Below the pieces are notes generated by a model. It made no database searches. It saw only the letters and a list, made by a program, of their open reading frames with translations, and was not told the DNA's origin. From the NCBI GenBank assembly GCA_050734185.1, contig JBOHUE010000157.1:1430-65429 (forward strand): 64,000 nt of DNA, written 5' to 3'. This document shows positions 13,839 to 54,051 of this stretch, in pieces. This stretch comes from Candidatus Dormibacteria bacterium. GTDB lineage: Bacteria; Chloroflexota; Dormibacteria; Aeolococcales; Aeolococcaceae. Positions within the stretch are counted from its first letter, which is position 1; every line of letters starts with the position of its first letter. Both the position numbers and the translations under genes were made by a program.

Positions 13839-14875
13839 CCGGCCAGCCGGCCCGCTGCCCGCGAAGCTCCCAGGAGCGCGTCGACGACGTCGTCCCAGTT
13901 GAGTCCGTTGGCGCGCCGCCGTCCCGCCTCGCCCAGGCGGCGCGCCAGATCGCGATCCGCGTCCAGACGCGCGATCGCCTCGGCAACGTGGTCAGGGCTC
14001 CCGTCGGTCACCAGGCCGGTCACGCCGTCCTCGACCCACTCGAGGACACCGCCGGAGTCGCGAGCGGTGATCACCGGCTTGCCGGAGAGGAACGCCTGCA
14101 GCGTCACGTAGCCGTAGTCCTCCTCGTGAGGCAGGTAGACGACGGCGAGCGCGCCGGCAAATCGAGCGATGAGATCCTCGTCGTCGAGAAAGCCGGTGAT
14201 CTCCAGCCGGGGTCCAAGCCGCAGGCGCTCGGCGGCGGCGCGGATCGCGGGTTCCAGCGACCCGGGACCGGTGAGCACGCCGCGGACGCCCGAGGGACAC
14301 CGCGCCAGCGCCTCGACCAGCAGCTGCGGGCGCTTGTTGCGCTCGAGGCGCATCGGGGCGAACACGTAGTCGCCAAAGGGCCCGGAGTGCAGTCGATCGG
14401 ACAGGGGTGGCGGATGGTACAGGGGTGTCGAGCCGAGCCCGTTGAAACGCAGCAGCCGCTCGCTGACGACGTGCGAGGTGGTGAACACGCGCTCCGCCTC
14501 CTCGAGGGCTCGCGTGTCCCAGTCCGTCATCACCTGCTGCGCCTCGAGCGAGTCGTCGTCGGTGCCGATGTCCGACCACGACGAATCGGCCGCGTCATAG
14601 AGCGCCCGATGTTGGTGAAAGAGCCACACAACCTTGTCGGGATGCGTCGCGAAGTACGAGGGAAAGTTCGTGCAGATGACGAGGTCGGCGTCAAGTGGGA
14701 GCAGACGCCACGCAAGCGCAGCGTCAAAGATCCGCACTCTGTCCCACGCGACCGGCAGTCTGACAAGCTCCGCCTCATGCCGGGCCCTGCCGAGCGCGGT
14801 CACGAGGTTCTCCATGTGCATCTCGGCGCCACCGCGCATGAACGGCTTTTGCGCCCCGCAAACGAGAATCCGCAT
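13835..14875 (-). CDS. GT4-family glycosyltransferase
   Basis: Real start taken at the internal ATG (MRILVCG, nt 14875; alternative ATG at 14902). The 407-aa track ORF start at 15058 would overlap the divergent gene. GT-B C-domain with FLSGKPVITARDSGGVLEWVEDGVTGL. Confidence 0.75.
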   Translation of the reverse strand: MRILVCGAQKPFMRGGAEMHMENLVTALGRARHEAELVRLPVAWDRVRIFDAALAWRLLPLDADLVICTNFPSYFATHPDKVVWLFHQHRALYDAADSSWSDIGTDDDSLEAQQVMTDWDTRALEEAERVFTTSHVVSERLLRFNGLGSTPLYHPPPLSDRLHSGPFGDYVFAPMRLERNKRPQLLVEALARCPSGVRGVLTGPGSLEPAIRAAAERLRLGPRLEITGFLDDEDLIARFAGALAVVYLPHEEDYGYVTLQAFLSGKPVITARDSGGVLEWVEDGVTGLVTDGSPDHVAEAIARLDADRDLARRLGEAGRRRANGLNWDDVVDALLGASRAAGRLAG

Positions 14876-14922
14876 CCTGCTCTCTGTACTCGCGGGCATC
14901 ATAGAGACTTTCCGCGTCAGCG

Positions 14923-16188
14923 GTGCACAATCCAGAGGAACCAGTGGTGAACGAATCTCGCCCCTACGGCCGCATCGGCTTCGTGGCCCCGCGGTTCGGC
15001 GAACGCGTCGTGGGCGGCGCCGAAGCCGTGCTGCGCGAGGTGGCGCAGGGCTTTGCACGCCGGGGCTGGGATGTCGAGGTCCTCACCACCTGCGCGCGAG
15101 ACCACTTCACGTGGGCAAACGAATACGCGCCGGGGACGGAGCGAGTCGGAGATCTCACGGTGCGGCGATTTCCCGCGGTGGTGTCAACCGCTCGCAGGGA
15201 CCGCGCGCGCATCGAAGCGGCCATCCTCGCTGGCGACACGGTGAGCGTCGAGGACCAGCAGTGCTGGGTGAACGACGACCTGCGAGTCCCCGAGCTGTTC
15301 CATCATCTCGTCGACCACGCTCAGGACTATCGCGCGCTCGTGTTCGCTCCGTACATGTTCTGGACGACGTTCGCGGGCGCGCAGGTGGCTCCCGAACGCA
15401 GCATCTTGATGCCCTGTCTGCACGATGAGGCCTATGCCCGGCTCGACATCTTCCAGCCGGTGTTCTCCGGATGCGCAGGCGCGTGGTTTCTCTCCGACCC
15501 CGAGCATGCGCTCGCGCATCGTCTGTTCACCGTCCCCGGCCGCCATGAGGTCGTGGGCTCGGGCGTGCGCGTGCCTGCGACCTATCAGCCGGAACGCTTT
15601 CGCGAGCGACACGGCATCCGCGACCGCTTCGTGCTGTTCGCAGGGCGCCGCGAGGGTGGTAAGGGCTGGGAGCTGATGCTCGACGCATTCGCCCGCGCCG
15701 TGCAACGGCATTCGCTTCCCTTCTCGCTGGTGACGATGGGCACCGGCATCGTGCATCCACCGGAGTCGATCCGCGACCGGGTGATCGATCTGGGATTCCT
15801 CGACGACGAGGACCGCGACGACGCCTTCGCGGCGGCCGATGCATACATTCAGCCCTCACCGCATGAGAGCTTCTCGCGAACCATCATGGAGGCCTGGCTG
15901 GCGGGAACGCTGGTCATCGCCAACGGCGCCAGTGAGGTTGTTCGCTGGCACTGTGATCGGTCCGGAGCGGGGCTGACGTACGACGACGACGTTGAGCTCG
16001 GTCAGTGTCTCGCGTTCGCCGCAGAGTCACCGCAGAGCGCAGCGGCACTGGCCGGCCGCGGACGCGCATACGTCCTGGCGCATTACGCGCCCGACGCGGT
16101 GTTGCAGCGGCAGGAGGACACAATCCTCAGCTGGTTTCCCGCGACCGGCTCGGTGCCGGCCCAACGGCCCGATGAGGCGATTGCGTGA
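14923..16188 (+). CDS. GT4-family glycosyltransferase
   Basis: EX7E motif region ESFSRTIMEAWLAG; N-terminal RIGFVAP. The start may instead be the GTG at about 14948 (GAGGAA SD upstream), which would leave a roughly 70-bp divergent promoter region. Confidence 0.75.
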   Translation: MHNPEEPVVNESRPYGRIGFVAPRFGERVVGGAEAVLREVAQGFARRGWDVEVLTTCARDHFTWANEYAPGTERVGDLTVRRFPAVVSTARRDRARIEAAILAGDTVSVEDQQCWVNDDLRVPELFHHLVDHAQDYRALVFAPYMFWTTFAGAQVAPERSILMPCLHDEAYARLDIFQPVFSGCAGAWFLSDPEHALAHRLFTVPGRHEVVGSGVRVPATYQPERFRERHGIRDRFVLFAGRREGGKGWELMLDAFARAVQRHSLPFSLVTMGTGIVHPPESIRDRVIDLGFLDDEDRDDAFAAADAYIQPSPHESFSRTIMEAWLAGTLVIANGASEVVRWHCDRSGAGLTYDDDVELGQCLAFAAESPQSAAALAGRGRAYVLAHYAPDAVLQRQEDTILSWFPATGSVPAQRPDEAIA

Positions 16189-17609
16189 CCCGCATCCTGG
16201 TCATCGCGCCATATCCGCCGGTGCGTGACGGCATTGCCGCGTACACGGTGCAGTCGGTGGCCCGCCTGCGTCACGCGGGCAATCACGTTGAGGTGCTGTC
16301 TCCGTACCCGTCCGCGGCACACCACCACCTGCCGCTCAACACCATCAACGGAGTGCTGCGGCTGATCCCGTACGTTCGCCGTTTCGACACGGTCCTCGTG
16401 CAGTACCACCCGGACATCTTCTTCCCGCGCTCGAGCAGCGCAGCGGAACGCGAGCGCATCGCCGCGGCCCTCACGCTCGTGTGGCGCAGCGCAGCGCACG
16501 TCGAGATTCGAGTCCACGAAGCTGATTACGCGCGGGCGCATCGCGGGCCGGCGTGGCTGGCGACGCGCGCGATGTGGCGCGCCGCGTCCCGGATAACGGT
16601 GCACACCGGCACCGAGCGGACACTGTTCCATCGAGCGTACGGCCTCCCGCTCGCACGCATCGAGGTGGAGCGTCACGGCAGCGACTTCGCCGTGCGCAGT
16701 GGCGACAGCCGTGATGACGCGCGTGCTCGGCTCGCGCTGCCGCGCGACCAGCTCATGTTTCTGTCGATCGGTTTCATCCAGCCGCACAAGGGCTTCGACC
16801 GGGCGATCCGGGCGTTCATCGCGAGTGGCGCCGCCGGATCGAGGGGGGCACGACTCGATGTCGTCGGTTCCGTGCGCGTCGAGGAACCGGCGTATGTCGC
16901 TCACCTGGAGGAGCTGCAGCGGCTCGCCGACGCGACCAGCGACGTGCATCTGCACGTGGGCTTCATCGGCGATGAGGAGTTCGATACCTGGATCGTCGCC
17001 GCGGACGTCATCGTGCTGCCGTATCGCCACATCTGGTCATCGAGCGTGATGGAGCGCGCCGCACTGTACGGCCGGCCCGTCCTCGCCGCAAGGGTTGGCG
17101 GCCTCGCCGACCAAGCGCGGCCGAACACCACCCTGTTCGACGACGACGCCGAGCTGGCAGCCGCCATGCGGCACATCGTTGCGGAGCGCGGCGTCGCCCT
17201 CGACACGAGTCCGGCGCCGCGCATCCCCTGGCCGGACCCCGAAACGGCCACGCGCGCCATCGTCGAAGACGAGGTGCGGAGCCGCGCGGCCGCCGAGCGC
17301 CGCGCTCTGTTCCCGAGTGACCGAAACGGCGCTGCGCCGCCCACCTCCACAAACGGCACGGCCCTCACCGGCGTGAGCGCACGGCTGCGCCGGCTCCCGC
17401 CACTGCAGCTGCCCGCCCCCGAGTCACCCCGGCCCGGCGCGACTCCGCTCAAGCGGTTGATCCAGCGTCTCACGCGCTGGCAGCTGGAGCCGATCGTGCA
17501 TCAGGTCAACGAGCTGCAGCGGGTCGTCGCCAGCACACTGGAGGACCGCCCGCTCGGGGAATCGGATCAGGCGCCCGACAGCCCGCGGACGCTGGTGTCG
17601 CCCCCGTAG
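16185..17609 (+). CDS. GT4-family glycosyltransferase with about 120-aa low-complexity C-terminal extension
   Basis: GTG start overlapping the upstream TGA; ILVIAPYPP N-terminus; C-domain motif VLPYRHIWSSSVMERAALYGRPVL. Confidence 0.75.
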   Translation: MTRILVIAPYPPVRDGIAAYTVQSVARLRHAGNHVEVLSPYPSAAHHHLPLNTINGVLRLIPYVRRFDTVLVQYHPDIFFPRSSSAAERERIAAALTLVWRSAAHVEIRVHEADYARAHRGPAWLATRAMWRAASRITVHTGTERTLFHRAYGLPLARIEVERHGSDFAVRSGDSRDDARARLALPRDQLMFLSIGFIQPHKGFDRAIRAFIASGAAGSRGARLDVVGSVRVEEPAYVAHLEELQRLADATSDVHLHVGFIGDEEFDTWIVAADVIVLPYRHIWSSSVMERAALYGRPVLAARVGGLADQARPNTTLFDDDAELAAAMRHIVAERGVALDTSPAPRIPWPDPETATRAIVEDEVRSRAAAERRALFPSDRNGAAPPTSTNGTALTGVSARLRRLPPLQLPAPESPRPGATPLKRLIQRLTRWQLEPIVHQVNELQRVVASTLEDRPLGESDQAPDSPRTLVSPP

Positions 17610-33405: not shown

Positions 33406-33409
<4 letters not shown>

Positions 33410-33837
33410 GAGCTCGGCGACGGCGCCTCAGGATCCGGCTGGCACAGCTCGGTGAGCACCCCGGCACCGGCGGACGGATGCAGGAAAGCGACCAGACGGC
33501 CCGCGGCGCCGTGACGCGGGCACGTGTCGAGCAGGCGCAACCCGAGTCCGGCGAAGCGATCGAGACTCTGCTGCACGTCATCGACGGCATACGCGACGTG
33601 GTGCAGACCGCCGCCCCGCTTGGCGACAAAGTTGGCGATCTTGGAGTCGGGACGTGTGCTGCCGAGGAGCTCGATTCGCGATTCGCCCACCTGGAACATC
33701 ACGGCCTCGATGCCGTCACTCTCGACCCGATCTCGGTGAGACGGGGCTGAATCGGTGAGCTCCGCGTACGCCGCCACCGCGGCGTCCAGATCCGCGACAG
33801 CGATGCCGATGTGATCAATACCGTTGAACGAGGCCAT
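33406..33837 (-). CDS. methylmalonyl-CoA epimerase (VOC/glyoxalase fold)
   Basis: 143 aa, HIGIAV...ELL...GGGLHHVAY metal-ligand pattern; only the last 143 codons of track ORF 33406..35157 are real. Confidence 0.85.
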
Positions 33838-33930
33838 CCTCGACCGAGTATAGGCAGCCGCTGTTTGACGGGGCTGCAACGATCCGGCCCGGCGAATCCC
33901 CGCGCGAGCGCCGCTCAATACGATCGTCCC

Positions 33931-35358
33931 GTGGCTCTGCGCAGGCTGCTCCTGGGCGGCCTTCTCGTGTTCACGATCGGGTTCGCGGTGTTCGCGCTGG
34001 AGCACATGTTCCCGCCGCAGCCGTATGGCATCGCCGACGACTGGCGCGTGTTCTACGCCGCTGCGACCGTGGTGCAGCACGGCGGCAACCCCTACGACGC
34101 GACGACGATCCACGCCGCCGAACAGGCGGCGCAGCACTATCAGAACGTGCAGCCGTCGCTCGACGACTTCACCGATCTCCCGATCATCGCGCTCGTGCTG
34201 CGCGCTGTCACGTGGCTGCCGTACTGGGCGAGCTACGCCGCGTTCAGCGCCGCCGGGATCGTCATCGTCATGGCGTCGCTCTTCGCATGGATGCGTGCGT
34301 GGGGCTGGCGCCGACCCGCGCTCTGGCTCCTCGGCGGCCTGGCGTCGTGGCCCGTGCTGCTCGGCCTGTTCTCGGGTCAGTTCGACGCGGTGCTGCTCGG
34401 CGCAACCATCGCCGCGCTCCTGCTGATGCGCCGGCATCGACCCGTGGCCGCGGGGCTGTGCATGGCCGCGGTGCTGTTGAAACCGCACCTGCTCTGGCCA
34501 CTGCCGCTGCTGCTGTTCGTCGTGTGGCTGGACGATCCGCGTCAGGCGTGGCGGTTCGCGGCGTCGGCGGCCGCCGTGATCCTGAGCGGCACGCTGATCG
34601 GATTCCTGCTCGTCCCGAATTCGTCGGGATTCGTCGGACACCTCCTTGGATTCGGGTCGCGGGTGGCCGACGTGCAGCCGGACCTCGCCGGCGTTCCGGG
34701 CATGCTCCTGCACCTGCCGGGAGGCAGAACCATTGCAGTGGCGGTCGCAGCCATTGGAGTGGCGGCGGTGTTCGCGCTGGCAGCATGGATCGCGGTGCGC
34801 GGACGGCGTCGCGAGATGGGAGAGCACGCACGCGCGTTGATCCCGCTTGCCGGGCTCGCGGTCTGGCTTGCGCTGACGCCATACGCCCACCCCAACGACG
34901 ACGTCCTGCTGTTCCCGCTCGTCGTGCTCATGGTGGGTCGCGATGCCGCCGCGCTCGAGGGGCGCGCCCTCGGCGCCGGTCTCGTCGCCGCGGCAGTCGT
35001 GGCCGCGGCCTTCATCGCCGCGCCGGCAATCGGCTTTCTCGCCGTCATCGGGGGCGCGAGCTGGCTGGTCGTGCAGCGGCATCGCGTCACCGCGCCGCTT
35101 GTGGCAGCACTCGCGTTCGCAGCCGTGGCGGTGCTCCCCACCGTCTGGCCGTTCCACGTGCTGACCGTTCCCGTGACACCCATCGCCGTGGTGCTCACCG
35201 CGCTGGCAGGGCTGCTCAGCGTCCGGGAGACCCTCGGGCCGCCGCAGCCAGGCTCAGTGAGAGAGCGCGTCGGGGAGCGCGAGCGGAGTGGGGGGATCGG
35301 TGGCGTAGTCGTAGAAACCACGCCCGCTCTTGCGGCCGAGGCGTCCGGCCGCAACTAG
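33931..35358 (+). CDS. membrane protein, DUF2029 / GT87-like (polyprenyl-P-mannose-dependent mannosyltransferase family)
   Basis: Start placed at the in-frame GTG at 33931 to avoid overlap with the divergent epimerase gene (track ORF starts at 33811); about 10 TM helices. The C-terminal 105 bp overlap the convergent dehydrogenase gene. Confidence 0.6.
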   Translation: MALRRLLLGGLLVFTIGFAVFALEHMFPPQPYGIADDWRVFYAAATVVQHGGNPYDATTIHAAEQAAQHYQNVQPSLDDFTDLPIIALVLRAVTWLPYWASYAAFSAAGIVIVMASLFAWMRAWGWRRPALWLLGGLASWPVLLGLFSGQFDAVLLGATIAALLLMRRHRPVAAGLCMAAVLLKPHLLWPLPLLLFVVWLDDPRQAWRFAASAAAVILSGTLIGFLLVPNSSGFVGHLLGFGSRVADVQPDLAGVPGMLLHLPGGRTIAVAVAAIGVAAVFALAAWIAVRGRRREMGEHARALIPLAGLAVWLALTPYAHPNDDVLLFPLVVLMVGRDAAALEGRALGAGLVAAAVVAAAFIAAPAIGFLAVIGGASWLVVQRHRVTAPLVAALAFAAVAVLPTVWPFHVLTVPVTPIAVVLTALAGLLSVRETLGPPQPGSVRERVGERERSGGIGGVVVETTPALAAEASGRN

Positions 35359-40422: not shown

Positions 40423-41997
40423 ATGACCCCGCTTCCGCCTAACTACTCGCCAGAACTAATCTTCGGAGTAATCGGACCTGCTGGCGCGGACCTGGGTGGA
40501 GTCAGCACAGCTCTTGAGAATGAGTTGCAGCGATACCGATACAAGGCGAAGATCCTGCTGGTAAGTGACCTTTTTAGGTCGCTTCCTGGCTTTGATCACC
40601 TGGGTGGAATCACTCGACCACGAGGCCTGAACGACTATGAGGTCCTGATGTCGGCGGGCGATGCCATAAGACGTCGAGCGAACCGGAAAGACGCCGCAAT
40701 TCTCATGGCCCTAACTAGCATCATCGATTCGCACGGCGATTGGACGAAGGAGCCGCGAGACACTGCCTGGATTCTGAACTCAATCAAAACTCCTCAGGAA
40801 GCGGACCTACTCAATGTCGTATACGGTGGACGCTGCTGGCTGTTATCAGTGTTTACGAAGCGAGAGAGCCGTATTCAGCAAATAGCCGACGAACTCGCGA
40901 GGCAGCGCGGAGGCACCGTCGGGAGAGTGGAGACTCAAGAAGCGGCCGACCTTGTGGAACGCGACGAGGGCGGTGTCACCATCGACGAATTCGGTCAGAA
41001 CGTCGGGGAAGCCTTCCCGCTCGGCGACTACTTCATAGACGTCGACAGAGACGACTTACAGGCACAGTTGCAAAGGTTTCTTCGCCTTGTCTTTGCTGAC
41101 CCATTTATGACGCCACAGCGCGATGAACAACTCATGTTTGTCGCGTACGGAGCTGCAATGCGTTCGGCATCGCTTTCCAGGCAGGTGGGGGCGGCGATCT
41201 CGGTCGAAGACGGCGCCATCGTCGCCATTGGGGCAAACGAAGTACCTAAGGCCGGAGGTGGTCAATATTGGGCTGAAGACTCCAATGCGAAGGCGACTGA
41301 TGATGGCAGGCAATTTCGACAGGCAGAGGATCTGAGCGAGACAACGAAGGACGCAATGGTCCGCGAGCTGCTGGCCTCAATTGAAGAACTACTCAAGGAT
41401 CCGGTTGATTCAGTTTTCGCGTCGCTTGATCGCAAGAAGCTTCGGGTGTTTGATCTCCTCGAGTTCTATCGTGAGATGCATGCGGAGATGGCCGCGGTCA
41501 TCGACGCGGCTCGCCGAGGGGTGTCAATTCGCGAGGGCACGTTAGCCACTACAACCTTCCCCTGCCACGACTGCGCTAAGCACATTATCGGGGCGGGCAT
41601 TAGACGCGTGCTCTTCATACAGCCATACGTGAAGAGCCGAGCGGCTGAACTCCATCGCGACGCACTAGTTATAGGTCATGAGCGCCCGATAGACGTTATA
41701 TTTCAGGGCAACCCCGTGACCTTCGAGACGTACCGCGGGATAGCCCCCAAACGCTACATCGAAGTCTTTCGAATGCCGGCCCGAAAGGTGGCTGGGACTC
41801 AGGTCACCTGGCGCGAAGGCGTTGCCGAGCCACGCACTGGGTTGCTGGGATCGAAGCTAACGCAGTTTGAGGTTGTAGAGGCAGAGCGTGCTGGACAGTG
41901 GTCAGGAGTTGTGGTGCGCGAGCAAGTTTTGGGAAAGAGACTACCCACAATAATCAAGGCCTTAGAGGAGGCTATCAATGCAGAACGGACCACATGA
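40423..41997 (+). CDS. AvcD/DCD-like anti-phage deoxycytidylate/dCTP deaminase (N-terminal CMP-kinase-like domain with degenerate P-loop + C-terminal zinc deaminase)
   Basis: C-terminal CDA/dCMP-deaminase zinc motifs HAE (aa 353-355, nt about 41479) and PCHDC (aa 380-384) preceded by VGAAISVEDGAIVAIGANEV. N-terminus IFGVIGPAGADLGGVSTAL resembles the cytidylate-kinase P-loop IxGPAGxGKST but lacks the Lys. Lower GC than flanks. Confidence 0.65.
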   Translation: MTPLPPNYSPELIFGVIGPAGADLGGVSTALENELQRYRYKAKILLVSDLFRSLPGFDHLGGITRPRGLNDYEVLMSAGDAIRRRANRKDAAILMALTSIIDSHGDWTKEPRDTAWILNSIKTPQEADLLNVVYGGRCWLLSVFTKRESRIQQIADELARQRGGTVGRVETQEAADLVERDEGGVTIDEFGQNVGEAFPLGDYFIDVDRDDLQAQLQRFLRLVFADPFMTPQRDEQLMFVAYGAAMRSASLSRQVGAAISVEDGAIVAIGANEVPKAGGGQYWAEDSNAKATDDGRQFRQAEDLSETTKDAMVRELLASIEELLKDPVDSVFASLDRKKLRVFDLLEFYREMHAEMAAVIDAARRGVSIREGTLATTTFPCHDCAKHIIGAGIRRVLFIQPYVKSRAAELHRDALVIGHERPIDVIFQGNPVTFETYRGIAPKRYIEVFRMPARKVAGTQVTWREGVAEPRTGLLGSKLTQFEVVEAERAGQWSGVVVREQVLGKRLPTIIKALEEAINAERTT

Positions 41998-42286: not shown

Positions 42287-43729
42287 ATGCGATTTAGCGA
42301 GTACTTCGGCGTCGCTGCCGCCGGCGTGGAGTGGTACGACCCAGTACTCACTGAGGACACTCCACTATATGTGGACCCGTTTCTTGTCTACGAAGATGCT
42401 GATCCTTTTTGGGCCAGCTCACATGACATCGTTGTCGAGTTCTTTGCGACCGCGCTGGGGCTGGTCCGCCGTGCGCCCGATAGGCGCCAGTCCGTGCATT
42501 GGCGCAAGGCGGAAAGACTTCTCACGTTCCCGGAACCCAAGGAGTTCGCGCTCGGCCTCGCTATGGGGACACCGGTTGGGTCAGGCACGGGAAGGGAATT
42601 CGCGCATGTCATGGCAGGGGCGTTGGGCGTCGTCGCCGGAAGCGGCATCAGTCAGGTCGAGTTTGTAGAGCTGTTCACGCTCTTTGCGCAGGGGCTGGGC
42701 CCCGATCGGATCAGCGATATCCTCTGTAACATCCTCAAGGCGCAGTTCATCGGCTACACACAGTCGATTGCGAAAGAGTTGGGGATTCAGTTATCGCCGA
42801 TACCGACCCGACACGTCAGGTGGAGCGCTGCGAGCACGCGGTGGGAGGACGGACTGTGTCTTCTGCCGCTAAGCCCGGTCACCAACGCAGGTATCCTCTT
42901 AACGCCGCATCGCTTCCTCAAGAACATCCCAACCGTAACGGCTCTGGGCTTCTGGAATTGGGCTGAGACGAGTGCCAGCCAAATTCTCCGCGACGACCTC
43001 AACTACGACCTCGCCGAGCATCTAAGCCGAAGCGAGCGGGAGAGGCGCGCCCGCGAGCTTGCGCATCTACGGCCGCCCCTGGCGCTTAGCTATCTGCAGC
43101 ACGTGGCGGAGGATGTCGAGCACGCTCCATACAATGTTGAAGACGATCCCGACCTACTAGTTGGTTGGCACGAGGCCGGTCGGCTCGCATTCGATCCTGG
43201 CTTGGCGCCAGATGGAGATCCACCGGAGGCTGACTTCTGCATTTGGGTAGGTGATCTGCTGGATCGCTTTCGGCATGCCGTAGAGGAAACGGATTTGTGG
43301 CGCGTGCTATGGAATGACGCTTTGACGAAGCCTCGAGCTGAGAAGATTGTCCAGGCGGTTGCAGGAAGTGTTCTGGCTCCCTACTGCGAAGCCGCTGATG
43401 TTGACCTATCGCGTGAGGCGAATATCGGTCGCGGCGCGGTCGATTTCAAGTTCGCTCGAGGCTGGAAGAAGCGCGCTCTCACGGAAGCTAAGTTGATATC
43501 AAGCAGTCATTTCGACAAGGGAGCCGGAAAGCAACTACCTCAGTATCTGAAAAGTGAACGCATCGAGTGCGGGTACTATTTGTGTGTTGGATTCTTCAAC
43601 GGCGATTTCGAAGGCGATCGCCTATCCAGAGTTACTGAAACGTGTCGGGTGTTATCCGAGCAAATGGGACGTCCGATAGCTCCAGTCATCGTTGATGCTA
43701 GACCCAAGGAATCCGCCTCAAAGTTGTAG
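42287..43729 (+). CDS. hypothetical protein, possible C-terminal PD-(D/E)xK nuclease fold
   Basis: 480 aa, no recognised family; C-terminal GAVDFKF...ALTEAKLIS fits a D...ExK nuclease core; island codon usage. Confidence 0.5.
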   Translation: MRFSEYFGVAAAGVEWYDPVLTEDTPLYVDPFLVYEDADPFWASSHDIVVEFFATALGLVRRAPDRRQSVHWRKAERLLTFPEPKEFALGLAMGTPVGSGTGREFAHVMAGALGVVAGSGISQVEFVELFTLFAQGLGPDRISDILCNILKAQFIGYTQSIAKELGIQLSPIPTRHVRWSAASTRWEDGLCLLPLSPVTNAGILLTPHRFLKNIPTVTALGFWNWAETSASQILRDDLNYDLAEHLSRSERERRARELAHLRPPLALSYLQHVAEDVEHAPYNVEDDPDLLVGWHEAGRLAFDPGLAPDGDPPEADFCIWVGDLLDRFRHAVEETDLWRVLWNDALTKPRAEKIVQAVAGSVLAPYCEAADVDLSREANIGRGAVDFKFARGWKKRALTEAKLISSSHFDKGAGKQLPQYLKSERIECGYYLCVGFFNGDFEGDRLSRVTETCRVLSEQMGRPIAPVIVDARPKESASKL

Positions 43730-43758
43730 TCCTCCACACGGAGCTCTCCGTATCCATA

Positions 43759-43802
43759 CCGCGTTGGCCATTACATCGCACCGCGTTGGCCATTACATCG
43801 CA
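43759..43802. repeat. perfect 22-bp tandem direct repeat x2 (CCGCGTTGGCCATTACATCGCA)
   Basis: Seen directly, 30 bp after the stop of 42287..43729. Confidence 0.8.
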
Positions 43803-43980
43803 GCGGGATGCTGCGATAACGGGCTCGCAAGTTTGATGGGGCTTGGCTACTTTGGCGTTGGTCGAGGCCACAAGTGCCACCACGGCGTCGGTTAGCTGAG
43901 CTCCTCGGTTGTCCACGGGCCTGCTCGTCGAGACGCTCGACGCACTCTCTGGGCTCGGCTAGATTCAGCTAGAGGAGGCT

Positions 43981-44010
43981 GTGTGATAAGGCCGCGGCGC
44001 CTCATCACAC
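43981..44010. promoter_or_regulatory. 30-bp near-perfect palindrome GTGTGATAAGG-CCGCGGCG-CCTCATCACAC (candidate operator or terminator)
   Basis: 11-bp arms with 1 mismatch around an 8-bp CG loop, about 100 bp upstream of the first HNH gene. Confidence 0.4.
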
Positions 44011-44107
44011 CCATGTTCGTCGATTGGCCCCTCTAACCCATCACGAATGAGGCGCCGGGAATCCGTCGTAGGCGTTCGGGAGGGGCCCGTTTGCCGTCGC
44101 GTCATCC

Positions 44108-45082
44108 ATGACGCTTGACCAGCTTCGGTGGCATAGTTGCGCATACTTCGGGATGGCCGCTCAATTCGCTGACGAGCCGGTGCGCTCCGCCGCCTTTGCA
44201 TTCCTCGCCGACCAGGCGCGGATCCGCGATCAGCCGTGGCCGCCTGTACTTCCACGGTCCCTCCTGCAAGCTGGCTTTGAGTTTGGCGGTCAGCGGGTTC
44301 CGCTCGTCGGCCCGCAGGGGATCTTCAAGCCGGCGGCGCTCCCCGGAACGATCCCACTCAGCATCACCACGGCTCCACCGGTGCTGCATCACGATGCCCC
44401 ATACGACGACGAGTTCGGGTACGGCCACCTCGTCTATCGCTATCGCGGCATCGATCCAAGCCATCACGAGAACGTGGGGCTGCGATCCGCGATCAAAACG
44501 CAGACGCCGCTGATCTACTTCCACGGCATCGTTCCCGGTTCCTACCTCGCGACGTGGCCGGTGTATATCGTGGGAGATCGTCCCGAGCAGTTGGCGTTTA
44601 CGGTTGCTTTCGAGCCGGGCGCTGTCGAACGGCTTCCTGAGGCGCAGCTCATGGAAGAAGACGCGAGGAGGGCATATGCAGAGCGCCTCGTCTTGCAGCG
44701 CCTCCACCAGGCTGGGTTTCGTGAGCGAGTACTGACTGCGTATCGGCGGTGCTGCGCACTGTGTCGGTTACGACACGCACCGTTGCTCGACGCGGCCCAC
44801 ATCATTGCGGACGGCCGGCCACGCGGAGAGCCGGTAGTGAGCAACGGCCTGGCGCTTTGCAAACTCCATCACGCGGCATTCGACGCGAACATCATCGGGA
44901 TCCGGCCGGATCGCGTTGTCGAAGTCAGGCAGGAGGTCCTTAGTGAGACGGATGGCCCGATGCTCGTCCACGGCTTGCAAGAGGTCCACGGGTCGCGGAT
45001 CTGGACGCCGCGTTCACCGGAGCTGCAGCCAACCGCGGCCCGACTTGAGGAACGCTATGAAGAGTTCCAGAAGGCCGGGTGA
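44108..45082 (+). CDS. HNH endonuclease (PF13391-like) with N-terminal reader-like domain; type IV restriction candidate
   Basis: HNH motif CALCRLRHAPLLDAAHIIA...NGLALCKLHHAAFD; N-terminal about 190 aa of unknown or PUA-like fold. Confidence 0.7.
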   Translation: MTLDQLRWHSCAYFGMAAQFADEPVRSAAFAFLADQARIRDQPWPPVLPRSLLQAGFEFGGQRVPLVGPQGIFKPAALPGTIPLSITTAPPVLHHDAPYDDEFGYGHLVYRYRGIDPSHHENVGLRSAIKTQTPLIYFHGIVPGSYLATWPVYIVGDRPEQLAFTVAFEPGAVERLPEAQLMEEDARRAYAERLVLQRLHQAGFRERVLTAYRRCCALCRLRHAPLLDAAHIIADGRPRGEPVVSNGLALCKLHHAAFDANIIGIRPDRVVEVRQEVLSETDGPMLVHGLQEVHGSRIWTPRSPELQPTAARLEERYEEFQKAG

Positions 45083-46020
45083 CAATGGGGCGCGTGTTCG
45101 TCGCCGTCACCGACTACGACTGGTATCGGAAGCTGCGGCAGATCCCCGATGTCGACGAGGTGAACTTCTGGCAGCCCAGCGGTGGTCGGAGATTCGGCGC
45201 AATCGGGGTTGGCGAGATGTTCCTCTTCAAGCTGCACGCGCCCTACAACGTCATCATTGGTGGTGGTTTCTTCGCACGCCACACAACGCTTCCGCTCCAT
45301 TTGGCCTGGGAATTCTTTGGGCTCAAGAATGGCGCAAGCAGCGAGGAGGAAATGGTCGTCAGGGTGGCACGCTACGTTGATAGCCTCAAGGGCGTGTCGG
45401 CGCTGCAGCGGAGCAAACACCCGATCGGCTGCGTGCTCCTCGAGCAACCGTTTTTCTTCCCAGAGACCGAATGGATTCCCCAACCCGCAGATTGGGCCCG
45501 GAACATCGTGCAGGGCCGCGGTTACGACCTCGCCGAGGCGACGGGCCAGAGCCTGCTAACAAGCGTCAGCGAGCGCTTGGCAGGTGAGTCCGTTGTGCTG
45601 CTTGATGAGGCGACCGGCCGGTACGGAGCACCAACTCTGGTGCGCCACCGCCTCGGACAGGGATCGTTCCGCGCTGCCGTGACTGACGCCTACCACCGTC
45701 AATGTGCCGTCACCGGAGACCGGGTCCTCTATGTGCTCGACGCGGCTCACATCCGGCCGTTCGCTCGGGGTGGTGAGCACAGCGTGAACAACGGGTTGCT
45801 TCTTCGGAGCGACCTTCACACGTTGTTCGATCGCGGGTATCTGGCGGTCGACCCACAACATAGGGTCCAGGTGAGTCGCCGGCTGCGCGAGGAGTTCGAC
45901 AACGGGAGAGAGTACTACGCACTGGAAGGCCGTCGCCTGCTCCTGCCGGCGGAGCGCGTCGACCTCCCCGATTCCGGTTTGCTGGCTTGGCATCGGCACG
46001 AGGTCTTCGTCGCTGCGTGA
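45079..46020 (+). CDS. EVE/PUA-like-domain HNH endonuclease (PF13391-like); type IV restriction candidate
   Basis: ATGA overlap with the upstream HNH gene; N-terminal EVE-like FWQPSGG...GEMFLFKLHAPYNVIIGGGFFA; HNH motif CAVTG...LDAAHIRPF...NNGLLLRSDLHTLFDRGYLAV. Confidence 0.7.
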   Translation: MTMGRVFVAVTDYDWYRKLRQIPDVDEVNFWQPSGGRRFGAIGVGEMFLFKLHAPYNVIIGGGFFARHTTLPLHLAWEFFGLKNGASSEEEMVVRVARYVDSLKGVSALQRSKHPIGCVLLEQPFFFPETEWIPQPADWARNIVQGRGYDLAEATGQSLLTSVSERLAGESVVLLDEATGRYGAPTLVRHRLGQGSFRAAVTDAYHRQCAVTGDRVLYVLDAAHIRPFARGGEHSVNNGLLLRSDLHTLFDRGYLAVDPQHRVQVSRRLREEFDNGREYYALEGRRLLLPAERVDLPDSGLLAWHRHEVFVAA

Positions 46021-46102
46021 CGTGCACACCTTCCGCGATGTGGAGGCACTTGGGAGGATTTTCCAGGCTCGTCCCGACTTTAGTGGAGTCACATTCTTGG
46101 AC

Positions 46103-46411
46103 TCACGCTGCCGTCGTAGGCTGATGCTGAGCCTCGAACTCGACTGGCGTCAGCAAAACCAGTGACATATCGTGGCGCTGGCGGTTGTGGAAGATCTCCA
46201 GGTACTCGAAGATCACGCTTGCGAGCTCAACCGGCGTCGACCAACCTGGCCAGGTCGCTTGAGCTGGTGCAACTCCGGCCGTGCGGACCCAGCAAGTGCG
46301 GGGTGTTACGCGTTCTCCAGCGCCGGGAGTGTTTCCACCACCACCTCCGTCGACCGTTGCGTCAGCTTGGCCACTGACCCGCCGCTGAAGTAGCGGCGAC
46401 GAACGGCACAT
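46103..46411 (-). pseudogene. IS3-family transposase (integrase core) C-terminal fragment
   Basis: IFEYLEIFHNRQRHDMSLVLLTPVEFEA matches the conserved C-terminal tail of IS3 OrfB (IFEYIEvFYNRxRRHSxLGYxSPxEFE); no upstream catalytic region present. Confidence 0.5.
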
Positions 46412-46775
46412 TCATCGTGCTGCTCCTTGAGCACGGCACGGACCAAGCGCAGCAACGAGTGGCGGTTGGAAACATGCCGACCACGTCGCAGCGTCGGCTG
46501 ACCTCCTAGTTAAGCCGCTCCGGGAGTTCGTGGACCAGATCACGCGGCGGTGCCCGACCGGGAACCCGTAATACGCGAGCACGTCGTCCTGGGCTGCCCC
46601 GGGGCACGTCACGAGCTTGGCGAAACGCTTCTCGAAGAGCCTGCACACGCGACCAACGGCGGCTTTTGGCTGTGACGCGATCGGGTGGGCAAAGAGGGTG
46701 CGAATCGTGGCGGCCGACATCCGGTGCGCAGCCTTCCGAACGGTGGCCAACGCGTTTCTCATGACGTGCACGGCC
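46412..46775 (-). pseudogene. IS256/Mutator-family transposase internal fragment
   Basis: VHVMRNALATV...LAYYGFPVGHRRVIWSTNSRSGLTRR matches the IS256 conserved block (CxVHxxRN...FPxxHWxxxRTTNxIE); truncated at both ends. Confidence 0.5.
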
Positions 46776-46857
46776 GCTCGGCCACCTGGCCCCGACGAAC
46801 ACCTACCGAGAGACGACCTGTTGACCCTGAACGAGCACTCTGGAAACATCCCGTCCG

Positions 46858-47452
46858 AATGGACATTGACGAAGTTCAACGATCGAGAGCGATCGCACGA
46901 CTTGGCAAGCTTGGCGGGTTCGCTCCCCCGGCTGGCGAAGCCCTCGTCGATGCCGCCATCGCCGGCGCTATCGACCATGCATTTGAGTTGATTAATGGCT
47001 CGGGCGCTGTTCCGACGAGCATGACAACTAGTAAGGCTGACCAGCTGCGTTTCATCTGCGAGCGCGCGGGGCGCCTCTTGTCCCAACGGGAGGTGGAAAT
47101 TCTGTTCCGCGTGACAGCGACAGCAGCACGAACGATCCTGACGACAATGCTCGCCACGTACGAGGAGGCTCTGCGTGAGAAGTTCGTGGCGCGCATGCGT
47201 AGCGATGCGCTGGTAGAACCCAGCGGCAGCGACGATGCTGGACTAAGCTGGACGCTGCGATTTACTGAGTCGGGCACTCTCGATACCGCCTGGAGTGAAG
47301 TCGTTCGACTTGGCATCGCAAGTCTTGGTGACATCAGCTCGTCACGGCGAACACTGACGATTCCTCGTAGCGCCACCATCCAGGGTGAGTCTATTGACGT
47401 TCTCGCCGCGCTTGGGCTGGAGCAACCAGCGACGCGTCCATCAAGGCGGTGA
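46858..47452 (+). CDS. hypothetical protein (island cargo)
   Basis: 198-aa ORF from ATG at 46858 with island-like (lower GC) codon usage; no recognised domain; partly overlaps the upstream part of the IS256-fragment ORF, which is non-homologous. Confidence 0.35.
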
Positions 47453-49332: not shown

Positions 49333-52300
49333 CTACCCGGCGTTGAGATTACCGTGAGTCTGGCGACGGCCGAACGTCGCGTGATCTCGCTTGCTGGCCG
49401 CCCGCCAGCCAGACACTCGCATCTTCCCCACCGGCGCTTGACGAAGCTGTGGGTCGCGCACCGGATTGAAGACTGCCGTTAATTCGGGAATCCCGCCGTC
49501 GGTGAGGTGCTCAACGACGTAGACCCAGTAGTCGGCACCGAGCTTGGGATCTAGCGCAACCTCCCACTCACTCGTCTCCAGGATGAAAGCGTCCGCTGCG
49601 AGTCCTCCGGACGCTTTCAGTTCGATGTAGCGGCCATCGCTCGCCACGAAATCGGCTCCCACCAAGGGCCCCTGTCGGTGCACGACGAAGCCGCCGCGCG
49701 TTGCCTCGAACATCTCGACGTATGGACGAGCGGCATCCTCGACAGCAGTGTTCGGAGGGATTGGAGTAGCGTCATCGCGGGCTTGACTCGGTCGGTCGGA
49801 CTCCGGGCGCGGCTTCCGGCGACGCGCAGTCCTTGGGAGCTCCCGCACCGCCTGAGACCCCAGAGCGTCATGCTCGGTGCTCTCGATCGACAACAACTCG
49901 AAGGAGGAAGGGTCGGCAAACGTACGCTCCACATGTGATGGTCGCCTAGTTTCCGTGGACGTCCGTGAGGAGCCTGGGGCTGGCCGTGTTGCCTGTCGGA
50001 TCGCATCAATAGCAGCCTCAACATCGTCTGCATCGTCATGATCGCCCTCCGCTCCACCGAAGCCCGCTTCGACTGAGAGCACGCCTACGCTGGTCTCGTA
50101 GCGCTCGATCCGCTTAGCGAAAGCCTCGGGCGATCGGAAAGCTTCTCCAAGCAGCGCCGCCAGCGCGTTCGTCGCGGCGAGTTGTCGCCGCTGAACGAGG
50201 GAACCGAGTATTTCTGCGGCTGTGTGACCGAATACGTCAGCTGATTCCACCCCGACAAGTACTCCGTCTCGAAGCAGCACCCGCGGCTCGGTGTGCAGTC
50301 GAATGTTTCCCTGGTCGGGGAGGCGAAGGACCAATCGGCCTTCAATCTTCAGTGCAGTTGCCGGCTGAAGACCCGCCGCCCCTGCGGCGAGATTGGCAAT
50401 CACGGCGCGATCCCAGCCCCCTTCGGACCGAAGCAACTCTGGCCATGCGCGGACGGCAGCCAGCCATCGACCTCTGAGATCCGCGCTGAGGTCTCCTCCG
50501 GCCACGACCAGCCACTGTTCCTCAAGGACCTCTCCCGGTGTCAACTCCCTGACGGCGAGCCAACGGGCTGCGGTTCCCACGACGGAGGCGTCGTACGTGC
50601 CGGGCAACCACCACGCAAGGTGAGTCTGGAGGGCGGACCGAATCTCCGGCCGGGCAGTCCACCAAGCCTGGTCGGCATCAAGCCAGCCGCGGTCTGTCAG
50701 TGCCGGCACGCCTGCGGGTCCGGCGCTCCCATGCGACACGACAGACTCTAGTCTCACGACCAATTCCCCATAGAAGTGGCGTGCGATCTCATCAACTGGG
50801 CTAGCCGCCATTTCGTAGCGAATGATGTCCGCCATCATCTGCGGATCGAGGTCCGCTCGCACGCCCAACGCGTCCCAAAGTGTGGCGGATCTCGGATAAC
50901 GTCCGGCGAGCTGCCCAACGAACGGGCCGGCGACAGCAGACACGTCCGCTCGCACCGTACGAACCGGTGACCACCATTCGTTGCCGATAAAATCACCCGG
51001 GGGCGGGGCGAAGATGAGGCCGACGCGGCCATTCCCGTGGAACTTAGGCCGGATAAGCAGACGAACCAGATCGGCACGCGCGGAGTTCGGCAGTGCTGTA
51101 AGTTCGCCAGCTATGAGCTCGTAACAAGCCCCGGCTGCGCGCCGACGCTGATCGACTGTGAGTTCTGGAGCTGTATCGCGGAGCCGCTGCAAGGTTGAGA
51201 TAAGGCGGTGCGGCGCGGGTCGTTCGGCGATGCCGATGTCATCGAGCATCGCGTCTGGCTGACTAGGCCAACCTAGGACCGATGCGGCTTCGCTCGCCAA
51301 GGCGAGCTTCGTTGCAGGACTACTGCGAACGAGATCCTTGGGCTTCTGCAAGGATCGGTCCAGCGCGCCGACCCAAGCGATCGACTCGAGCAGTCCCACC
51401 CACGACGACGCTACCTGAGGCGGGTCAGGGATCCAGTTGTAATAGAAATGCGCCGGCGTGGTCTTGCTGGTCGGCGCGATTCGGCCCCAATCCGCCTGGA
51501 GTACAGTCCACAGGGCTCGAGCTCGTCGCCCGCGTTGACGCGTCGACAGTGATGGCCACCGATCTACCAACCACGTGAGGTCGTCGGAAACCCAATCGTC
51601 GATGACACCGGTGGGTCGGGTCATCGCGCTTGAAGGCCAGACAATCCACGGCATCGTCCCGCGTGCGATCCTCGTCACGCGGCGTCCGTCACCGACGGCT
51701 TCGCCGATTCGCGGGCTGATGTAGGGACCAACCAAGCCCCCCAGGAATCGCAAGAACTCGGGAGGGGACATCTGCGCTCGAGCCCCCCGCTGGATACCTC
51801 GACCTCTCGGCACCGGGATCGCGTGAGTGTGGATCTCGTCGACAATCGCTCGGTCAGGCTTTCCGTTTGTCACGGCTTCCATGCCGTCCTGGCTGAGCAT
51901 GGCCGAGCTCAAATATGTTCTTGTGAGCGGTCGAGCGACAAGTCGTCGCGATCGCCCTTGACCAACGACGGCAGCGACGCGGAGACTGTCGCCCAACTGG
52001 CGCGCGATCATGGCTTCGTCTTGAGCGCGATGTGCCCGGCGATAGTCGTTCACGAAGCCTCGCCATCGATGCCTGATGAACTCGACCATCCGAAAGAGCT
52101 GTTCCCGCTGCGATTCATCGATGTGATCAAGCTTCGCTAAGGCGGCCATCCGGGGAACGACCAGGTCTGTGACGACGTGGTATGGGCCAGCCTGAAGCGC
52201 TACTCGGAAGGGCTCCTGCGACAACATATCGCGGACCCGCACGCGCATATCGCCTTGGTCCCGTCCGCGGCGCCGAGCCGCAAGCACACCCGGGGCTGGA

Positions 52301-54051
52301 TCGAGGAACGGATCGACAAGGTGGATCTCAGACTCATTGAAGTACCGCCGCAAGTCGGTGAGAGTTGCGGAGCGTGAGTACCCAAGCAGGTAGCCAGTGA
52401 GCGCAATACGTGGAGAAGGCCGGATCCGACCGCCATGCTCGATTGGTATGCATGCCGTCGATGCGATGGACGCGCGCTCCTCTTGAGTCGCCGTGGTCGC
52501 AACTAGGTCCAGCGCTCGAAGCCACCACCGTCCGTCGCGACGACCGAAACGGAGGTCATCGAGCCTGAGCAGAGCGAGCAGGTCTGGGAGCGCCACTGCG
52601 CGACCTCCCAGGGTGCCAACGACCGAATGCATCCTGCGCTCGTCACTTGACCCAGTGGCTGGTGCAGTTGCGGGAGCGACATACGAGACAGCCGTGCCTG
52701 TCGCCAAATGCAGGTCCGTTTCTCGGATGACTTCACGGAACGCCTCGTCTGGAGCCCACACAGCGGCAGAGGGTACCCGCCAACCCGCGACCGTGCGAAC
52801 GAATCGACGGTCGCGAAGCTGGCTCATCGCTACGTCAAACGCACGGTGCTGGAGGGAGCCGGGAGCAACCTCTGACGCGAGAGGGATGAGTGGCCACGGG
52901 GGTTGACCGGAACGGGATTCAGCTTCTATCGCCTTGGCGATGACATTGCCGATCTCAGTCAACAGCCAGCGATTCCAGTCATTCTCACGGAGTCGTTCGC
53001 GTCCAGGTGTTGGGTCGAAATCGGCTTGCACAAGCCAACGCAGTTCCGATGTGACATCTAGGGGCAGAAAACAGTGCAGCTTCGTGGGGCCGACCGAGCG
53101 ATCAATGGGCCGTGCGAGAACGATTGTCGACGTCTCGCCCGCCTGAACTTCCCGGCCTTGGCGTGCCAATCCGCGCGGGACCGCAGACGTCGAGTACCGA
53201 TATCGTCGCCAAGCCTGTTGCTCACAGCCAGGCCACGATCCGCCGATGCGACACTCGTCCCAGCCGCGCGTCCGGTTTGAAACGCCTGAGCGCCGATAGA
53301 ACTGGCCGCGGCCGCGTCCGGTGACTCGATCAATAATGACGATAGATTCCAGGCTGTCGAGCGTCAACAACAGGTGCAGGAATTCAGGCCTGGTTAAGTC
53401 CTCGATGATCGACGCCAATCGACCACGCTCCGAGGGTCGTACATGCAGCGTGAAATGAGCGCCACGAGGCCGGCGCGGCGGGAGCGGAAGCGGATCGGGA
53501 TAGATCTTGTCCTCAATACGAAAGGCGTACGAGCCTGACTCAATCTGCGGCGAATCAGTCAGCTTAAACACGGACTTGAAACCGATCCCGAAGAATCCGA
53601 TCTTGTTCTTCTTGGGACTATGCCCGGCCGAGCAGATTGCCCATACGTCTGGGGCCGAGAATGCCTGACCATCGTTGTGTACGCGGACCTCATCAGGCTC
53701 AAATAGAAAGAGTATTCGCCGCGCTCCTGCGTCTTCGGCGTTCTGGATCAATTCCAGCGCCCAATGGATGTCGCGCCCGTACAGCTGCTCGGACGCGATC
53801 GACAGGAGCGGACCAAGGTCGGGACTGCCGCGAAATTCTTCTTTTAGCGACCGAACTGCGCCGACGAACGTCTCATTCCAGTTCGGGTCGTCCTCCGGCA
53901 ACGATTCGACAGGGAGCCGCCGAGCCAGGCGCTCGACGGCATTGGCGGCGGCAGCCCGAAGTGAATCCACACCGGGAGAGGGTTCATGGACACCGCGGAT
54001 ACTGGCGCTCTTGGAGCGATTCGGGTCGATCAGCGTGGCGGTGGCCTCCAA
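49333..54051 (-). CDS. giant (1572 aa) sacsin/MORC-like GHKL ATPase with C-terminal DUF3883 / PD-(D/E)xK-like nuclease domain; defense-island protein candidate
   Basis: N-terminal HATPase_c_3-type N-box ELIQNAEDAGA and G-boxes KIGFFGIGFKS; C-terminal GADFVASDGRYIELKASGG...FILETSEWEVA...YWVYVV fits the DUF3883 GYDIxS...IEVKxT...lSxNE pattern. Confidence 0.75.
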   Translation of the reverse strand: MEATATLIDPNRSKSASIRGVHEPSPGVDSLRAAAANAVERLARRLPVESLPEDDPNWNETFVGAVRSLKEEFRGSPDLGPLLSIASEQLYGRDIHWALELIQNAEDAGARRILFLFEPDEVRVHNDGQAFSAPDVWAICSAGHSPKKNKIGFFGIGFKSVFKLTDSPQIESGSYAFRIEDKIYPDPLPLPPRRPRGAHFTLHVRPSERGRLASIIEDLTRPEFLHLLLTLDSLESIVIIDRVTGRGRGQFYRRSGVSNRTRGWDECRIGGSWPGCEQQAWRRYRYSTSAVPRGLARQGREVQAGETSTIVLARPIDRSVGPTKLHCFLPLDVTSELRWLVQADFDPTPGRERLRENDWNRWLLTEIGNVIAKAIEAESRSGQPPWPLIPLASEVAPGSLQHRAFDVAMSQLRDRRFVRTVAGWRVPSAAVWAPDEAFREVIRETDLHLATGTAVSYVAPATAPATGSSDERRMHSVVGTLGGRAVALPDLLALLRLDDLRFGRRDGRWWLRALDLVATTATQEERASIASTACIPIEHGGRIRPSPRIALTGYLLGYSRSATLTDLRRYFNESEIHLVDPFLDPAPGVLAARRRGRDQGDMRVRVRDMLSQEPFRVALQAGPYHVVTDLVVPRMAALAKLDHIDESQREQLFRMVEFIRHRWRGFVNDYRRAHRAQDEAMIARQLGDSLRVAAVVGQGRSRRLVARPLTRTYLSSAMLSQDGMEAVTNGKPDRAIVDEIHTHAIPVPRGRGIQRGARAQMSPPEFLRFLGGLVGPYISPRIGEAVGDGRRVTRIARGTMPWIVWPSSAMTRPTGVIDDWVSDDLTWLVDRWPSLSTRQRGRRARALWTVLQADWGRIAPTSKTTPAHFYYNWIPDPPQVASSWVGLLESIAWVGALDRSLQKPKDLVRSSPATKLALASEAASVLGWPSQPDAMLDDIGIAERPAPHRLISTLQRLRDTAPELTVDQRRRAAGACYELIAGELTALPNSARADLVRLLIRPKFHGNGRVGLIFAPPPGDFIGNEWWSPVRTVRADVSAVAGPFVGQLAGRYPRSATLWDALGVRADLDPQMMADIIRYEMAASPVDEIARHFYGELVVRLESVVSHGSAGPAGVPALTDRGWLDADQAWWTARPEIRSALQTHLAWWLPGTYDASVVGTAARWLAVRELTPGEVLEEQWLVVAGGDLSADLRGRWLAAVRAWPELLRSEGGWDRAVIANLAAGAAGLQPATALKIEGRLVLRLPDQGNIRLHTEPRVLLRDGVLVGVESADVFGHTAAEILGSLVQRRQLAATNALAALLGEAFRSPEAFAKRIERYETSVGVLSVEAGFGGAEGDHDDADDVEAAIDAIRQATRPAPGSSRTSTETRRPSHVERTFADPSSFELLSIESTEHDALGSQAVRELPRTARRRKPRPESDRPSQARDDATPIPPNTAVEDAARPYVEMFEATRGGFVVHRQGPLVGADFVASDGRYIELKASGGLAADAFILETSEWEVALDPKLGADYWVYVVEHLTDGGIPELTAVFNPVRDPQLRQAPVGKMRVSGWRAASKRDHATFGRRQTHGNLNAG

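Follow-up and report, generated by a model that had tools for sequence, protein, structure and literature searches.

From our analysis of a 64,000-nucleotide (nt) stretch of a Candidatus Dormibacteria genome (contig JBOHUE010000157.1, positions 1,430 to 65,429; the whole stretch is hereafter the window), two neighbouring open reading frames (ORFs), ORF1 and ORF2, probably encode two independent modification-dependent (type IV) restriction enzymes of reader-linker-HNH build, which travel as one cassette. A reading made from the sequence only had proposed tandem type IV restriction candidates at 44108-46020, and our computational follow-up bore this out by gene structure, HNH motifs, predicted folds, recurrence of the cassette and the lack of an adjacent methyltransferase; the two genes are real, adjacent and on the same (+) strand, where that reading had placed them. 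Although SRA-HNH and PUA-superfamily-HNH modification-dependent endonucleases are already well described (PMC4333417, PMC6212794, PMC6765204, PMC7897488), both reader domains found here belong to clades missed by curated sequence models, the ORF2 reader appears from its modelled fold to be ASCH-like, and the tandem pair recurs as a mobile cassette. The features of the two genes are as follows.

44119..46022, + strand: two-gene cassette, the nucleotide homology block (blastn) common to contigs with unrelated flanks
44108..45082, + strand: ORF1 (family 1), predicted SRA-like reader plus HNH nuclease; maximal ORF of 324 amino acids (aa), probable start ATG 44153 (309 aa), TGA stop 45080-45082
44240..44617, + strand: predicted SRA-fold beta-barrel of ORF1, residues ~30-155 of the 309-aa form, with a helical hairpin before the barrel (44153-44224); invariant Y84 (44402-44404) and Y95 (44435-44437), with D86 and E87 between them
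44636..44752, + strand: long helical linker of ORF1 from reader to nuclease, residues ~162-200, by the secondary structure of the model
44753..45079, + strand: HNH domain of ORF1 with a putative structural zinc site; C201-x2-C204, H216 (CAC 44798-44800), N231, C236-x2-H239, H240 and D244, from PF13391, invariant columns and a profile alignment to the TagI HNH
45079..45087, + strand: gene junction; GTG 45079 overlapping the ORF1 TGA (45080-45082) by 4 nt (GTGA), or the conserved ATG 45085-45087, 2 nt past the stop
45079..46020, + strand: ORF2 (family 2), predicted ASCH-like (PUA-superfamily) reader plus HNH nuclease; maximal ORF from GTG of 313 aa, probable start ATG 45085 (311 aa), stop 46018-46020
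45085..45579, + strand: predicted PUA-superfamily/ASCH-like domain of ORF2, residues 1-165, with many invariant aromatics (W13, F28, W29, W75, F78, F123, F124 and W130)
45655..46017, + strand: HNH domain of ORF2, of VcaM4I type and without a CxxC zinc site; C207, H222 (CAC 45748-45750), N236, H245 and D249

ORF1 probably starts at Met16 (ATG 44153), since its homologues, at 306-309 aa, span 95% of the maximal ORF. The likely start of ORF2 is ATG 45085, because a database protein with 100% identity to it, which carries the annotation 'HNH endonuclease [Candidatus Dormibacteria bacterium]', is 311 aa long. As ORF1 ends with the TGA at 45080-45082, the two genes either have a 2-nt spacer between them or share 4 nt, and their translational coupling is plausible. 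A site scan found no promoter- or terminator-like sites of note between them, and around the cassette the promoter/terminator scan and the repeat search gave nothing above background except a 22-nt tandem duplication upstream.

Both C-termini were expected to be HNH nucleases behind distinct N-domains, and this held. PF13391 (HNH_2) was above the Pfam gathering score in both proteins (E 4.8e-9 for ORF1 and 1.4e-13 for ORF2), in each over the C-terminal ~65 residues only. The two proteins could be aligned (BLASTP, MAFFT) only from about residue 150 on (the last ~180 residues; 33% identity, E 6e-14), so that their N-domains are truly different. Across 64 family-1 and 65 family-2 members the catalytic His/Asn/His/Asp columns are invariant, and both nuclease motifs are kept in 13 of 13 intact gene pairs examined. 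In family 1, C201, C204, H216, N231, C236, H239/H240 and D244 are invariant or nearly so, and the C-terminal domain of ORF1 is a beta-beta-alpha-Me HNH with catalytic His/Asn/His and a putative zinc site. Its CxxC + CxxH arrangement is one of the structural zinc-site variants (CxxC + CxxC/CxxD/CxxH) that the TagI paper lists for SRA-HNH enzymes (PMC6212794). Family 2 has one conserved Cys plus the H222/N236/H245/D249 set, matching VcaM4I; in ORF2 this VcaM4I-type HNH follows a helical linker, and the family-2 profile retrieved the VcaM4I nuclease domain from the PDB sequences (E 8.5e-12, ~30% identity).

To the readers we came by way of confident AlphaFold2 models built from alignments A1 (family 1) and A2 (family 2). 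The ORF1 model (mean predicted local distance difference test (pLDDT) 81.6) has an N-terminal SRA fold, with the SUVH5 SRA as top structural match (11.3; 120 residues aligned, 2.4 Å), followed by SUVH4 (10.4), SUVH6 (10.3), TagI (10.0), UHRF1 (9.9) and the ScoMcrA SRA (9.5); SRA-like readers of other enzymes (LpnPI, MspJI, SauUSI, AbaSI and PvuRts1I) ranked lower. The N-domain that the sequence-only reading had called simply different is distinct from that of ORF2, as claimed, and these matches refine it to SRA-like; on its model, ORF1 is an SRA-like-HNH protein within the known SRA-HNH architecture. The human UHRF1 SRA (residues 414-614, 100% identical to PDB entries) was then compared one-to-one with the family-1 N-domain hidden Markov model, all filters off. 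The best local alignment, 'pYeDelgedgllvYrY' versus 465-GYEDDVDHGNFFTYTG-480, pairs Y84, E87 and Y95 of ORF1 with Y466, D469 and Y478 of UHRF1. Y466 and Y478 are the two walls of the 5-methylcytosine (5mC) pocket. Family 1 shows no variation at Y84, D86 and Y95 and has E87 as its consensus residue, and the Tyr-Tyr spacing in the consensus is 12 residues, as in UHRF1 and in TagI (Tyr55/Tyr67; PMC6212794). Because the score of this single comparison is weak (E 0.03), a base pocket formed by Y84, Y95 and E87 and equivalent to that of UHRF1 is suggestive only. The UHRF1 SRA sequence retrieves the TagI SRA at E 1e-20 but aligns only weakly to the ORF1 domain, which is indicative of a very divergent reader; the hhalign probability of A1 with the UHRF1 SRA was 0.9%. 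Lignin peroxidase matches of ORF1 in the search of PDB sequences were discarded as spurious.

For ORF2 (mean pLDDT 91.0), the whole chain matched VcaM4I (9.7e-10) and TagI (1.5e-5) in Foldseek. The N-domain model has an ASCH-like PUA beta-barrel fold and matches ASCH structures, of which ZmASCH is the nearest. Of the earlier label 'EVE/PUA-like', the PUA superfamily was retained and EVE was dropped, and on the model ORF2 is a PUA-superfamily-HNH protein with an ASCH-like reader.

Several results weigh against reading the pair as modification-dependent enzymes, and most of them concern the readers. The Pfam models for SRA, EVE, ASCH, YTH and PUA matched no member of either family (129 scanned), even at E <= 1 (0/64 in family 1 for the SRA models, so that the SRA sequence signature is missing, and 0/65 in family 2 for ASCH, PF04266). 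Against all PDB sequences, the family-1 profile found the TagI HNH and no SRA, the family-2 profile found the HNH part of VcaM4I and no reader, and phmmer searches with ORF1 and ORF2 returned HNH parts only. Since Pfam and the PDB-sequence profiles miss the reader domains, both reader assignments come from predicted folds alone. The pocket alignment to UHRF1 is statistically non-significant, and in the ORF1 model the loop of the HNH (residues 214-228) is predicted with low confidence. Furthermore, ZmASCH is an RNA-directed protein, and no experiment has established that ASCH domains read DNA modifications (PMC11037411).

We then estimated how widely the two families occur and how often they meet. 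Each family has thousands of full-length relatives, many of them named 'putative restriction endonuclease' by the Joint Genome Institute (JGI). A distribution scan with one genome per species gave 80 family-1 loci, which span Dormibacterota, Chloroflexota, Actinomycetota, Acidobacteriota, Gemmatimonadota, Proteobacteria, Bacillota, Bacteroidota, Spirochaetota and other phyla. The family-2 N-domain lies at most 6 kb from family 1 in 12 of the 80 species genomes, mostly directly adjacent. Solitary family-1 genes were found at 57 of the 80 loci, counting those with enough flank, and close relatives of ORF1 (68-81% identity; L001, L083-L086) are solitary too, as are some family-2 genes (L090-L092). 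The paired family-1 members are scattered over a neighbour-joining tree of family-1 N-domains, and the pairs are arranged with family 1 first (as in the window), with family 2 first, or on opposite strands. Downstream of one solitary family-2 gene, at a distance of ~300 nt, we noticed a 77-aa ORF with a weak Pfam ASCH match (L090 9230-9463).

The pair closest to that of the window (L081; 89% and 87% protein identity) has the same 2-nt spacer, and another (L087; about 87% and 80% protein identity) has a 1-nt spacer. In blastn, window positions 44119-46022 aligned to L081 7968-9870 (84.9% identity over 1904 nt) and 44120-46020 to L087 540-2439 (76.2% identity), and no other similarity turned up within the query (window 43000-47000). 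As the nucleotide similarity ends at the gene ends and the flanking genes are unrelated, the pair is a discrete two-gene cassette, present in at least three unrelated contexts. Upstream of the cassette in L081 there is a 149-aa ORF (7420-7869), found also in L082 (341-790) and absent from the window by tblastn. At another locus (L088 7222-8004) the frame of the family-1 gene breaks off within the HNH motif (after ...LALCKL), and the gene has a 4-nt overlap with a family-2 gene that is intact; the broken copy is a partner in decay or else reflects an error of assembly. A phage origin is unlikely: 2.9 million viral contigs yielded just three family-2 genes of full length. One viral contig (L093) carries a pair with family 2 first and a more distant family-1 member.

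Among 144 immediate neighbours of family-1 genes (25 families listed, including all with at least two members), the commonest Pfam family was HNH_2, with 9 members. The neighbourhoods are heterogeneous (e.g., Mrr, AspBHI-like and BrxL proteins, integrases); these 144 neighbours include no conserved accessory gene, and none of the 25 families listed is a DNA methyltransferase family. In the window, the ORFs scanned from 33 to 60 kb include no methyltransferase, and a crude motif scan found none either, its matches at 8130-9617 and 33409-35253 being an epimerase and a glyoxalase-domain protein. In both surveys, then, no cognate DNA methyltransferase lies alongside, as is expected of type IV enzymes.

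Probably, ORF1 and ORF2 share a transcript and spread from genome to genome as a two-gene cassette. The SRA-like barrel of ORF1 may flip a modified cytosine (5mC or 5-hydroxymethylcytosine (5hmC)) into a pocket that has Y84 and Y95 as its walls and D86 or E87 as the carboxylate, by analogy with TagI, ScoA3IV and UHRF1, after which its zinc-stabilised HNH would cut nearby DNA. Each enzyme would work independently of nucleoside triphosphates (NTPs) and probably as a homodimer through the HNH, as in TagI and VcaM4I. The ORF2 reader may recognise a different modified base, possibly N6-methyladenine (6mA) or an N4- or C5-modified cytosine. Suggestions for this mark come from the 6mA-stimulated nicking by ScoA3V, a 'distantly PUA-related'-HNH enzyme (PMC6765204), from the prediction that prokaryotic ASCH domains read 6mA, and from the N4-acyl-cytosine chemistry of YqfB. 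With both readers, more kinds of modified DNA from phages or plasmids could be cut; the host would be without the corresponding modifications, and a methyltransferase partner would for that reason be needless. The characterised reader-HNH relatives are 5mC/5hmC- or 6mA-stimulated nucleases (PMC6765204, PMC6212794, PMC7897488); for ORF1 and ORF2 we infer that they flip bases, which modifications they recognise, that they dimerise and that they act against phages. In L081, a gene for an MmeI-like type IIG N6-adenine methyltransferase/endonuclease lies ~4 kb from the cassette (13791-16930, - strand); if this enzyme is active, ORF2-type readers there can hardly target 6mA indiscriminately.

The two proteins may instead act as one enzyme, an SRA-HNH/ASCH-HNH heterodimer joined through the HNH domains, in which cutting would depend on or integrate two different marks, or in which each subunit would nick one of the strands; we consider this unlikely. 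Such an enzyme would agree with the tight junction (a 2-nt spacer or an overlap of 4 nt), which L081 and L087 keep, with the sharp homology boundaries in three unrelated contexts, with family 2 lying close to family 1 in 12 of 80 genomes and HNH_2 being the commonest neighbour, and with catalytic residues kept in both partners of every intact pair; TagI and VcaM4I, moreover, both dimerise via similar HNH interfaces. However, solitary genes prevail in family 1 (57/80, close relatives at 68-81% identity included) and occur in family 2, the pairs are scattered over the family-1 tree in three arrangements, and the two HNH domains are of different subtypes (with versus without the zinc site) at only 33% identity. 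A 'two-key' type IV enzyme of this heterodimeric kind, which cuts only or best doubly modified DNA, or in which one reader tells self from non-self and the other targets, is likewise a long shot.

Of similarly low probability is that the PUA- and SRA-like domains sense some other ligand (e.g., a free modified nucleotide arising in infection, RNA, or damaged or unusual DNA) and thereby unleash the HNH as an abortive-infection effector. This would agree with reader domains that none of the curated SRA, EVE and ASCH sequence models covers, ZmASCH and YqfB act on RNA or nucleosides, and the linker of VcaM4I auto-inhibits its HNH, which makes ligand-gated activation feasible in such an architecture. 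A PUA-domain defence system that binds free m6-dAMP has also been reported (PMC12871103). Against it, the whole-chain architecture and the HNH types match enzymes shown to cut modified DNA, the best structural matches of ORF1 are DNA-binding SRA domains and its Tyr...Tyr/carboxylate segment is kept, and the families have no conserved accessory genes around them. Incidental pairing, that is, two unrelated single-gene defence nucleases brought side by side as the island accumulated genes, would suit the mostly solitary members, the variable arrangements and the heterogeneous neighbourhoods with other defence genes (Mrr, AspBHI-like, BrxL) and integrases, but is very improbable, as the same partner family recurs in distant phyla and is the most frequent kind of immediate neighbour (HNH_2), adjacency in 12/80 far exceeds the ~0.3% roughly estimated for a random gene in a ~4 Mb genome, and the pair is inherited or transferred as a single block with identical boundaries.

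Two independent reader-HNH enzymes in one cassette, the reading we favour, can be placed among known systems. ORF1 resembles the SRA-HNH type IV enzymes (TagI, ScoA3IV/Sco5333, TbiR51I, MsiJI and VcaCI) in the predicted N-terminal SRA fold, the helical linker, the C-terminal HNH and the length of ~300 aa, and likewise in an HNH that aligns to TagI with the CxxC + CxxH variant and in the lack of a cognate methyltransferase. It differs from them in the extra N-terminal helical hairpin and in an SRA so divergent that neither Pfam nor a 64-sequence profile finds a link, and by manual reading it appears to be without the long NKR-finger loop of UHRF1. ORF2 resembles the EVE-HNH enzyme VcaM4I (also TspA15I and CmeDI) in having a PUA-superfamily reader, a helical linker and an HNH within ~310 aa, in a clearly homologous nuclease without the CxxC zinc site, and in the alignment of the whole chain; its reader, unlike that of VcaM4I, appears ASCH-like and not EVE. 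The plan of ORF2 is also that of ScoA3V (Sco5330), by its published description a non-EVE PUA-like-HNH enzyme, but close homologues of ScoA3V are reported in Actinomycetales only (PMC6765204), whereas family 2 spans many phyla. In S. coelicolor the SRA-HNH enzyme ScoA3IV (Sco5333) lies, by locus numbering, three loci from Sco5330 (PMC6765204), which is a precedent for nearby SRA-HNH and PUA-like-HNH genes, although those two are not directly adjacent and a predicted adenine methyltransferase (Sco5331) stands between them by the same numbering. The known ASCH proteins (ZmASCH, AF2351, YqfB and the TRIP4 ASCH), unlike ORF2, stand alone or act on RNA or nucleosides; in the literature searched there was no ASCH-nuclease fusion shown as a restriction enzyme, and the term 'ASCH-HNH' had zero occurrences. 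The phosphorothioate-dependent SBD-HNH/SBD-SRA-HNH enzymes (SprMcrA, ScoMcrA; NCBIfam NF045808) were considered and rejected, as the scores were 58 and 76.5 bits against a 180-bit cutoff; only the HNH part aligned (model positions ~158-283), with the N-terminal part of the model unaligned and no match to the sulfur-binding domain.

If the assignments are correct, the type IV catalogue would gain two large multi-phylum reader-HNH families, one of them a very divergent clade of SRA and the other ASCH-like, both with readers invisible to Pfam. As the DNA-modification specificity of ASCH domains is still open in the literature, family 2 would be a convenient compact test case, and in a weaker form of the two-key idea, if true, it would hold the first ASCH-type reader that directs a restriction nuclease to a specific mark (6mA, or N4-methylcytosine (4mC)). 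The recurrent two-reader cassette suggests that bacteria may bundle complementary modification sensors in one mobile unit, which bears on how hosts face phages with different hypermodified bases. Reader-HNH enzymes are of practical use, too, as reagents for epigenetic mapping. In essence, current concepts are unchanged and a well-described modular theme is extended.

The cassette lies within a low-G+C stretch of the window at 40-56 kb (0.58-0.64, versus 0.67-0.71 in the flanks), which is a defence island flanked by housekeeping genes; no tRNA genes were found at its borders between 36 and 58 kb. Around the cassette, this stretch holds the following.

40423-41997, + strand: anti-phage dCTP deaminase homologue (PADLOC dCTPase, 1.9e-131; NCBIfam antiphage_deaminase, 361.8 bits, under the 400-bit cutoff)
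42287-43729, + strand: PDC-M36A-like ORF of 480 aa, matching PDC-M36A, a candidate defence protein in PADLOC, over its first ~219 residues (E 2.9e-22); no Pfam domain
43758-43801: 22-nt perfect tandem duplication (ACCGCGTTGGCCATTACATCGC x2), in the 379-nt spacer from the PDC-M36A-like ORF to ORF1 and outside the conserved cassette block
46103-46411, - strand: rve_2 integrase-core fragment, a transposase remnant directly downstream of ORF2
46412-47086, - strand: Mutator-family transposase fragment, a transposase remnant downstream of ORF2
49333-54051, - strand: TmtA (Tiamat)-like protein of 1572 aa, with a sacsin-type HATPase N-terminus and a NOV_C C-terminus (PADLOC, 5.5e-105)

The sequence-only reading had called the two nucleases notable next to the neighbouring deaminase; a link to it is not supported, as the deaminase gene is absent from the other cassette copies and had a single weak match (L076) in ~119 related loci. 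A functional link to the PDC-M36A-like or TmtA-like gene was set aside on the same ground, and since none of the three genes stands beside the cassette elsewhere, their proximity here is defence-island clustering and not a conserved system. The two transposase fragments are decayed insertion sequence (IS) elements at the edge of the cassette.

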